Shown in pieces: positions 58,381-58,708 of a DNA stretch of 64,000 nucleotides. Below the pieces are notes generated by a model. It had not been told where the DNA came from. It did not search any database and saw only the letters and a program-made list of their open reading frames with translations. Position 1 is the stretch's first letter; every line of letters starts with the position of its first letter. The DNA is from Escherichia coli (GTDB lineage: Bacteria; Pseudomonadota; Gammaproteobacteria; Enterobacterales; Enterobacteriaceae). The stretch lies in NCBI RefSeq assembly GCF_003334305.1, contig NZ_QOWS01000005.1. One strand, 5' to 3'. The translations under genes and the position numbers were made by a program.

Positions 58381-58396
58381 TAGACCAGTCGGTCTA
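58381..58396. promoter_or_regulatory. NemR operator (NemR box)
   Basis: Perfect 16-bp palindrome TAGACCAGTCGGTCTA, 15 bp upstream of the nemR start codon. Confidence 0.75.
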
Positions 58397-58468
58397 GTGC
58401 AAGCAAAGTTGCTACTTTGGACATTAACAGCTTCAATAATGGTAATAATCTTATCTGAGGAGGGCGAA

Positions 58469-58708
58469 GTGGCGGAGCAATTAGAGTTCTTTCCCGTCCA
58501 GAGCCCGTGCCGGGGAATTTGCCAGTCTGACGAACGCGGGTTTTGTCGCGGCTGTTTTCGTAGTCGGGATGAGCGTTTTAACTGGAATAAAATGAGCGAT
58601 GGCGAAAAACAAGAGGTGCTGCGCCTTTGTCGGCAGCGATTAATGCGCAAATTACGCGCAAATAAGCCAGCGTCATCAGACGAACCGGAGCAACCATCAC
58701 TCTTTTGA
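58469..58708 (+). CDS. ydhL: Small Cys-rich DUF1289-like protein
   Basis: 79 aa from a GTG start preceded by GAGGAGGG; CRGIC ... CRGC motifs. The longer ATG-initiated ORF (58298) would overlap nemR and was rejected. Confidence 0.55.
   Translation: MAEQLEFFPVQSPCRGICQSDERGFCRGCFRSRDERFNWNKMSDGEKQEVLRLCRQRLMRKLRANKPASSDEPEQPSLF

Follow-up and report, generated by a model that had tools for sequence, protein, structure and literature searches.

The most probable reading of the inverted repeat between nemR and ydhL of Escherichia coli is that NemR uses it as the operator of its own gene and that ydhL is transcribed from a separate promoter, free of direct NemR repression. We put the probability of this reading at about 75%. 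In a strongly conserved and compact arrangement, the operator makes up the exact spacer of a leaderless promoter. For its part, ydhL owns an independently conserved, non-canonical promoter. Three elements were already established: the operator itself, the nemRA-gloA operon and GTG as the ydhL start. The sole new idea of the first-pass annotation was that the repeat could also control ydhL; the evidence below argues against shared control, and the locus appears ordinary in this respect.

The window analyzed here is a 64,000-nucleotide stretch of E. coli DNA, and the region of interest corresponds to the K-12 gloA-nemA-nemR / ydhL-ydhF locus. RefSeq features agree with the list of open reading frames (Table 1), and RefSeq also places sodC on the plus strand together with ydhL and ydhF in the orientation of the window. 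A 1.1-kb query around the repeat was 100% identical to many E. coli chromosomes and was present in 5426 of the 5426 complete genomes searched, while the 141 bp flanking the repeat are identical to those of K-12 MG1655. The repeat does lie in the gap between the divergent nemR and ydhL genes, as had been annotated, and this gap measures 102 bp (58367-58468). An Rfam search of positions 57700-59000 returned no RNA family.

Table 1. Features of the nemR-ydhL region, in coordinates of the 64,000-nucleotide window.
Feature	Position	Strand	Basis
gloA, glyoxalase I, read-through expression from the nemRA operon	56145-56552	-	ORF list, RefSeq, literature
nemA, N-ethylmaleimide reductase, downstream target in the nemRA-gloA operon	56633-57730	-	ORF list, RefSeq
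nemR CDS, TetR-family repressor, 199 aa	57767-58366	-	ORF list, RefSeq
nemR ATG, transcription start 58366	58364-58366	-	Kim et al., 2012, tables S1/S4
nemR -10 TACACT, TAnnnT positions conserved	58374-58379	-	conservation and mapped start
NemR operator, inverted repeat TAGACC-N4-GGTCTA	58381-58396	.	sequence, conservation, selected mutation, literature
nemR -35 TTGCAC, abuts the operator	58397-58402	-	conservation and mapped start
ydhL -35 TTGCTA, -35 to -30 of the start	58409-58414	+	conservation and mapped start
ydhL -10-like TTCAAT, -12 to -7 of the start	58432-58437	+	conservation and mapped start
ydhL transcription start, 5' UTR 25 nt	58444	+	Kim et al., 2012, table S1
ydhL Shine-Dalgarno AGGAGGG	58458-58464	+	sequence
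ydhL CDS, GTG start 58469-58471, 79 aa, DUF1289, four invariant cysteines	58469-58708	+	ORF list, RefSeq
ydhF, aldo-keto reductase	58757-59653	+	ORF list, RefSeq

The repeat, TAGACCAGTCGGTCTA at 58381-58396, consists of two 6-bp arms around a 4-bp centre (TAGACC-AGTC-GGTCTA). Its earlier description as a perfect palindrome does not hold: the reverse complement is TAGACCGACTGGTCTA, and the symmetry is limited to the arms, the central AGTC being non-symmetric. The pattern TAGACC-N4-GGTCTA has this single match in the 64-kb window, even when up to two mismatches are allowed, and the number of exact matches expected from base composition is approximately 0.004 per 64 kb. We take the published NemR box to be TAGACC-N4-GGTCTA as well, and the primary paper defining it is said to be that of Umezawa and colleagues from 2008. 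Published work describes NemR as a cysteine-based sensor of electrophiles and bleach from the TetR family, which represses its own operon by way of an inverted repeat within the promoter of nemR and is inactivated by electrophiles through its cysteines. Purified NemR is reported to bind the site and to lose this binding upon modification of its cysteines, and a review mentions glyoxal resistance arising from a mutation in the NemR site. The assignment of the repeat as the NemR operator was correct in light of this literature, of the conserved arms, of the position within the nemR promoter and of a mutation selected in methylglyoxal-rich honeys.

Conservation was assessed in 80 loci coding for NemR relatives, drawn from species-representative genomes, and the repeat was found upstream of nemR in 41 of them. 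The genera bearing it include Escherichia, Citrobacter, Enterobacter, Kluyvera, Yersinia, Serratia, Hafnia, Providencia and Budvicia, to which two Vogesella species are added. Across these 41 loci the arms are nearly invariant and the centres vary, taking at least nine forms (GACT, GAAC, GATC, GAAT, GATT, AATC, GAGC, GTTC, and AACC). A pattern of this kind, in which the arms are constrained and the centre is free, is the hallmark of sites bound by protein dimers.

Selection experiments point to the same element. In an experimental evolution study with methylglyoxal-rich honeys, four isolates carried an identical intergenic G-to-A change described as lying at -84 of ydhL and -19 of nemR, and the remaining isolates from the same honeys had mutations within nemR itself. 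Since the two offsets together make up the 102-bp gap, the change maps to position 58385 of the window, the fifth base of the left arm and the second G of GGTCTA in the nemR sense. This base shows no substitution in any of the 41 boxes. The change sits in the promoter spacer, outside the -35 and -10 hexamers, and 58385 is the position expected for an operator-constitutive mutation. A larger lesion is found in E. coli FDAARGOS_1258, the sole genome of the 5426 with a match covering less than 80% of the 141-bp query. There, a 99-bp deletion between 11-bp direct repeats (GCAAAGTTGCT, window positions 58304-58314 and 58403-58413; L082 2506-2516) has removed the operator together with the promoter and the N-terminus of nemR and left the ydhL promoter intact. 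The nemR gene of this strain is a pseudogene in RefSeq.

The transcript of nemR is leaderless. Published start-site tables give the E. coli nemR mRNA a 5' UTR of 0 with 15 reads, the start being the A of the ATG, and the Klebsiella pneumoniae orthologue, ydhM, likewise has a 5' UTR of 0 with 20 reads (Kim et al., 2012). The gene nemR (ydhM) of both species is included among the leaderless mRNAs of table S4 of that study (Kim et al., 2012). The mRNA has no Shine-Dalgarno sequence, and only 7 nt (ccaacgc) separate the -10 hexamer from the ATG. Relative to the mapped start the operator spans -30 to -15, within the nemR core promoter, and the 17-nt spacer between the -35 and -10 hexamers is made up of the 16-bp repeat and one further base. 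The order TTGnnn, box plus one base, TAnnnT recurs in 39 of the 41 box-containing loci, and the distance from the -10 hexamer to the ATG is 6-8 nt in 33 of the 41 and 10 nt in four Serratia loci. In an alignment of 18 species, the invariant columns were the T-A...T of the -10, the box arms and the TGCAA of the -35 (TTGCA is invariant on the nemR strand). The first base of the box lies 29-31 nt before the nemR ATG in most Enterobacterales loci, a fixed distance that is explained by the operator being the promoter spacer of a leaderless gene. A scan for consensus sigma-70 promoters between 58200 and 58800 returned nothing; the nemR and ydhL promoters are both weak matches and were placed by conservation and published start sites.

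This layout suggests how NemR may act. A dimer of NemR sitting on both TAGACC arms would occupy the face of the DNA needed by RNA polymerase, and initiation of nemR-nemA-gloA transcription would be blocked until electrophile modification of the NemR cysteines takes the protein off its operator. We infer such simple occlusion from the position of the operator. Two further elements lie within nemR or at its end. The stop codon of nemR, just upstream of nemA, is contained in a terminator-like hairpin (GCCTGC-CGTTTA-GCAGGC followed by ATTTTTT, 57762-57779, minus strand). Directly after the T run of this hairpin falls a minor 5' end from published data (3 reads), and the fold z-score is weak (-1.06). 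This hairpin could be a partial terminator that sets the ratio of NemR to NemA. A published sigma-54 binding site, CTGGTTCAGTGTTTGCT (58079-58095, plus strand), is located within the nemR gene. It is antisense to nemR and points towards ydhL, and its authors place it 363 bp upstream.

On the other strand, the transcription start of ydhL was reported at position 1723969 on the minus strand of NC_000913, with 2 reads (Kim et al., 2012; table S1). All 29 sequences upstream of ydhL (loci L002-L039) contain the pattern TTGCnn-N17-TTCA[AC]T, always with a spacer of 17 nt and an invariant TTGC. Its -10-like hexamer is without the usual A at the second position. In 25 of the 29 sequences the extended form is CTTCAAT (58431-58437), and in the other four it is CTTCACT. 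Such strong constraint on a weak promoter could reflect another factor or a preference for sigma-S. Other assignments of the promoter were rejected on inspection by eye: for sigma-E, a GGAACTT-like -35 is spaced 22 nt instead of 16; for sigma-32, there is no CCCCAT; and for sigma-54, there is no GG at -24. Alternative -10 hexamers such as AATAAT are unconserved in other species and would require spacers of 19-20 nt. Downstream, ydhF starts 48 bp after ydhL and the pair usually stays adjacent; the two genes are possibly co-transcribed, and no ydhF row stands between the consecutive sodC and ydhL rows of the published start-site table (Kim et al., 2012).

The geometry of the intergenic region separates the two promoters. 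Relative to the ydhL start, the operator occupies -63 to -48, upstream of the ydhL -35. The -35 hexamers of nemR and ydhL lie back to back, 6 bp apart, with start sites separated by 78 bp. Alignment across species (A1) resolves two conserved promoter modules and, between the -35 hexamers, a variable zone of 0-41 bp. Where nemR and ydhL are direct neighbours (20 sequences), 9, 12, 20, 23, 30, 31, 37, 38, 53 or 91 nt separate the box from the ydhL -35, and these distances show no helical phasing. In E. albertii (L003, approximately 2300-2425, minus strand) an ERIC-like element, recognized by eye, is inserted in the ydhL 5' UTR, past the promoter and ahead of the ribosome-binding site; the genes are 222 bp apart in this species, and both promoters are intact.

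Furthermore, nine of the 29 ydhL loci have the same ydhL promoter with no NemR box within 250 bp, and in all nine the box stays with nemR. These loci come from Enterobacter cloacae and a related metagenome-assembled genome, Erwinia, Mangrovibacter, Cedecea and a close relative, and three Yersinia species. In eight of them (L008, L009, L025, L027, L028, and L030-L032, at about 700-2480 in each) ydhL is separated from nemR by a full-length gene of 547-585 aa, encoded on the same strand as nemR, that scores above the curated cut-off for EptA, a phosphoethanolamine transferase family. In Cedecea neteri, a truncated EptA-family remnant of 213 aa occupies this place (L022 1789-2430). The intervening genes, together with the remnant, suggest that the tight spacing in E. 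coli arose by deletion. Hence, the adjacency of nemR and ydhL in E. coli is best read as an inherited gene order tightened by loss of eptA and not as a shared regulatory unit, with a direction of eptA gain or loss that we infer. Outside the Enterobacterales, ydhL was not found within 2.5 kb of any NemR homologue, and the surroundings of three distant ydhL homologues held neither a TetR-family neighbour nor a recurring partner. In a distant relative without nemRA (L086 3552-5267), ydhL is still found close to gloA and rnt, with an intervening DUF2314 gene, which indicates that the ydhL-gloA neighbourhood is older than the adjacency to nemR.

These observations bear on whether NemR controls ydhL. 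According to the proposal of a shared bidirectional operator, NemR bound at 58381-58396 would repress both nemRA-gloA and ydhL (with or without ydhF), and YdhL would belong to the electrophile response. Several facts are compatible with it: the ydhL -35 begins merely 12 bp past the operator in E. coli, the divergent arrangement over approximately 100 bp is retained in 19 related loci, ydhL overexpression was a hit in published screens for resistance to H2O2 and HOCl, and ydhF encodes an aldo-keto reductase distantly related to methylglyoxal reductases. Regulators of the TetR family often act on a close divergent neighbour, and Ahn, Cuthbertson and Nodwell reportedly found in 2012 that this is frequent for neighbours less than 200 bp away. 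However, the operator position at -63 to -48 is outside the zone where a repressor blocks polymerase, the operator-to-promoter distance varies from 9 to 91 nt, the same promoter is kept in nine loci that have no box, and no second NemR-like site was found between 58300 and 58520, a range that includes the whole intergenic region, with up to five mismatches allowed. Genome-wide binding data have a place on both sides. In the part of the methylglyoxal RNA-polymerase ChIP-chip data examined, two induced regions have their peak probe inside nemR. The first starts at the nemR promoter; the second, with its start 200 bp more to the left, takes in 60% of ydhL. The resolution of the method is too low to separate promoters this close together, and the overlap with ydhL is within the limit of a nemR-centred peak, so that these data are compatible with co-induction of ydhL. 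In that same part of the data ydhF is not listed, although it should appear there if a ydhL-ydhF transcript were strongly induced. Taken together, the promoter geometry and the comparative genomics make shared control unlikely; the earlier idea that the operator could also control ydhL is disfavoured by them and not refuted.

A different kind of coupling would need no operator contact: derepression of nemR might alter ydhL expression through competition for polymerase or through negative supercoiling generated by transcription, in either direction. The closeness of the two -35 hexamers and start sites is in keeping with this, as are the strong induction of nemRA by methylglyoxal and the weakness of the ydhL promoter, which with its few reads and non-canonical -10 could sense the local state of the DNA. 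The close spacing is confined to some lineages, however, and any coupling would therefore be incidental and not selected. We regard such indirect coupling as improbable to the same degree as the shared operator. We therefore prefer the reading of an autoregulatory NemR operator beside a separate ydhL promoter. On this reading, NemR is not expected to repress ydhL directly and would influence it at most in a minor, indirect way. With the operator ending so near the ydhL -35 in E. coli, some effect could still come from a wide NemR footprint or from the loss of upstream polymerase contacts.

Comparison with known systems supports the view of a familiar element. It is the same element at the same locus as the NemR box of nemRA-gloA (Umezawa et al., 2008; Gray et al., 2013; Lee et al., 2013; Ozyamak et al., 2013); what is added here is its position relative to mapped starts, the leaderless layout, its conservation in 41 loci and the placement of the selected mutation. 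Similarly, nemR does not differ from the leaderless regulator mRNAs described previously, being itself on that list, and the addition is the retention of a 6-8 nt distance between -10 and ATG across the Enterobacterales (Kim et al., 2012). AltR of Pantoea ananatis, a NemR homologue, is likewise a cysteine-dependent TetR-family autorepressor with an inverted-repeat operator over its own promoter (PMC13178969). Its operator differs, however, being CAATCTAC-N6-GTAGATTG and overlapping the -10 and the ribosome-binding site, and AltR responds to thiosulfinate inducers and controls a larger gene cluster (PMC13178969). The locus also resembles TetR/tetO in having a TetR-family dimer, a short palindromic operator and a short gap between divergent genes. 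In the tet system, the operators overlap the core promoters of both tetR and tetA. Unlike this arrangement, the single NemR operator overlaps the nemR promoter only and lies upstream of the ydhL -35, and the main enzyme targets of NemR are downstream of the regulator and not divergent from it. Nor is there the conserved spacing between operator and second promoter that a tetR/tetA-type arrangement would have, given the range of distances and the nine loci without a box.

The GTG at 58469 was correctly taken as the start of ydhL. It is the RefSeq start, and the position of the codon and its ribosome-binding site are conserved in 28 related loci, where the codon is GTG in 24, ATG in two (E. albertii and Superficieibacter) and TTG in two (Yersinia). 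A GGAG-type ribosome-binding site lies 5-9 nt before the start in 28 of 28 loci, and in-frame stops occur 1-4 codons upstream of it in eight of 28. The N-terminus M-x-EQLEFF is conserved well outside the Enterobacterales. Additionally, the mapped start of the ydhL mRNA is 3' of the alternative TTG and ATG starts. The first-pass annotation had set this start against an ATG-initiated 136-aa frame overlapping nemR by 69 nt; the overlap is real, but that frame starts with a TTG, at 58298. The first in-frame ATG, at 58331, would give a 125-aa product with a 36-nt nemR overlap as counted by hand, and this 125-aa form is used by some database records (P0002).

YdhL matches the Pfam family DUF1289 (PF06945) over residues 12-57 (E = 3.1e-19), and the cysteines C14, C18, C26, and C29 were invariant in 60 sequences. 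No NCBIfam model for YdhL was found, and a sequence search returned no relative of solved structure. Among 1.84 billion representative proteins, 1316 relatives were found by a search without a profile; matches in phages were to jumbo phages and covered the cysteine domain only. Members of the family have the four-cysteine domain, a basic helix and motifs at both ends. In the E. coli protein these are QLEFF at residues 4-8 (58478-58492) and QPSLF at residues 75-79, the C-terminus (58691-58705). Motifs were counted in 121 representatives (homologues P0121-P0268) in which the cysteine motif near the N-terminus is intact. An N-terminal Q-[L/G/I]-E-[L/F]-F was present in 98 of the 121, and in 96 its end falls exactly five residues ahead of the first cysteine. 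The motif Q-x-[D/S]-[L/M]-F occurred within the last nine residues in 41 of the 121 compared to 0.3 expected from tail shuffles, and anywhere in the tail it occurred in 56 compared to 3.0 expected. The tails range from a dozen to approximately 200 residues; in long tails an additional copy of the motif (QADMF, QLDMF, or QPDLF) is frequently found in the interior. Among Enterobacterales, the terminal E-E-P-Q/E-Q-P-S-L-F is kept and the ten residues before it vary; the tail is modelled without secondary structure and at lower confidence.

Replication and repair proteins bind the beta sliding clamp through a pentapeptide with the consensus QL[SD]LF. The terminal motifs of YdhL resemble this pentapeptide at the level of the motif only, and another partner would be possible. 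On this resemblance, binding of YdhL-family proteins to the sliding clamp is a tentative suggestion, more doubtful than probable, and YdhL could then be a metal- or redox-sensitive clamp ligand and the unusual component of this locus. In the literature searched, no paper connects ydhL or DUF1289 with the clamp or assigns them a function. Published screens classed ydhL as "essential only by TraDIS" in K-12, and, given the oxidant resistance hits, a functional link of ydhL to oxidant stress is possible. In E. coli, YdhL could be mildly coupled to the activity of the electrophile-sensing nemR promoter, and the combination of clamp binding with NemR-dependent control would be highly improbable. 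The terminal motifs may be new to the description of this family and, if real, the clamp-binding-like motifs would be the first functional lead for YdhL and its relatives.
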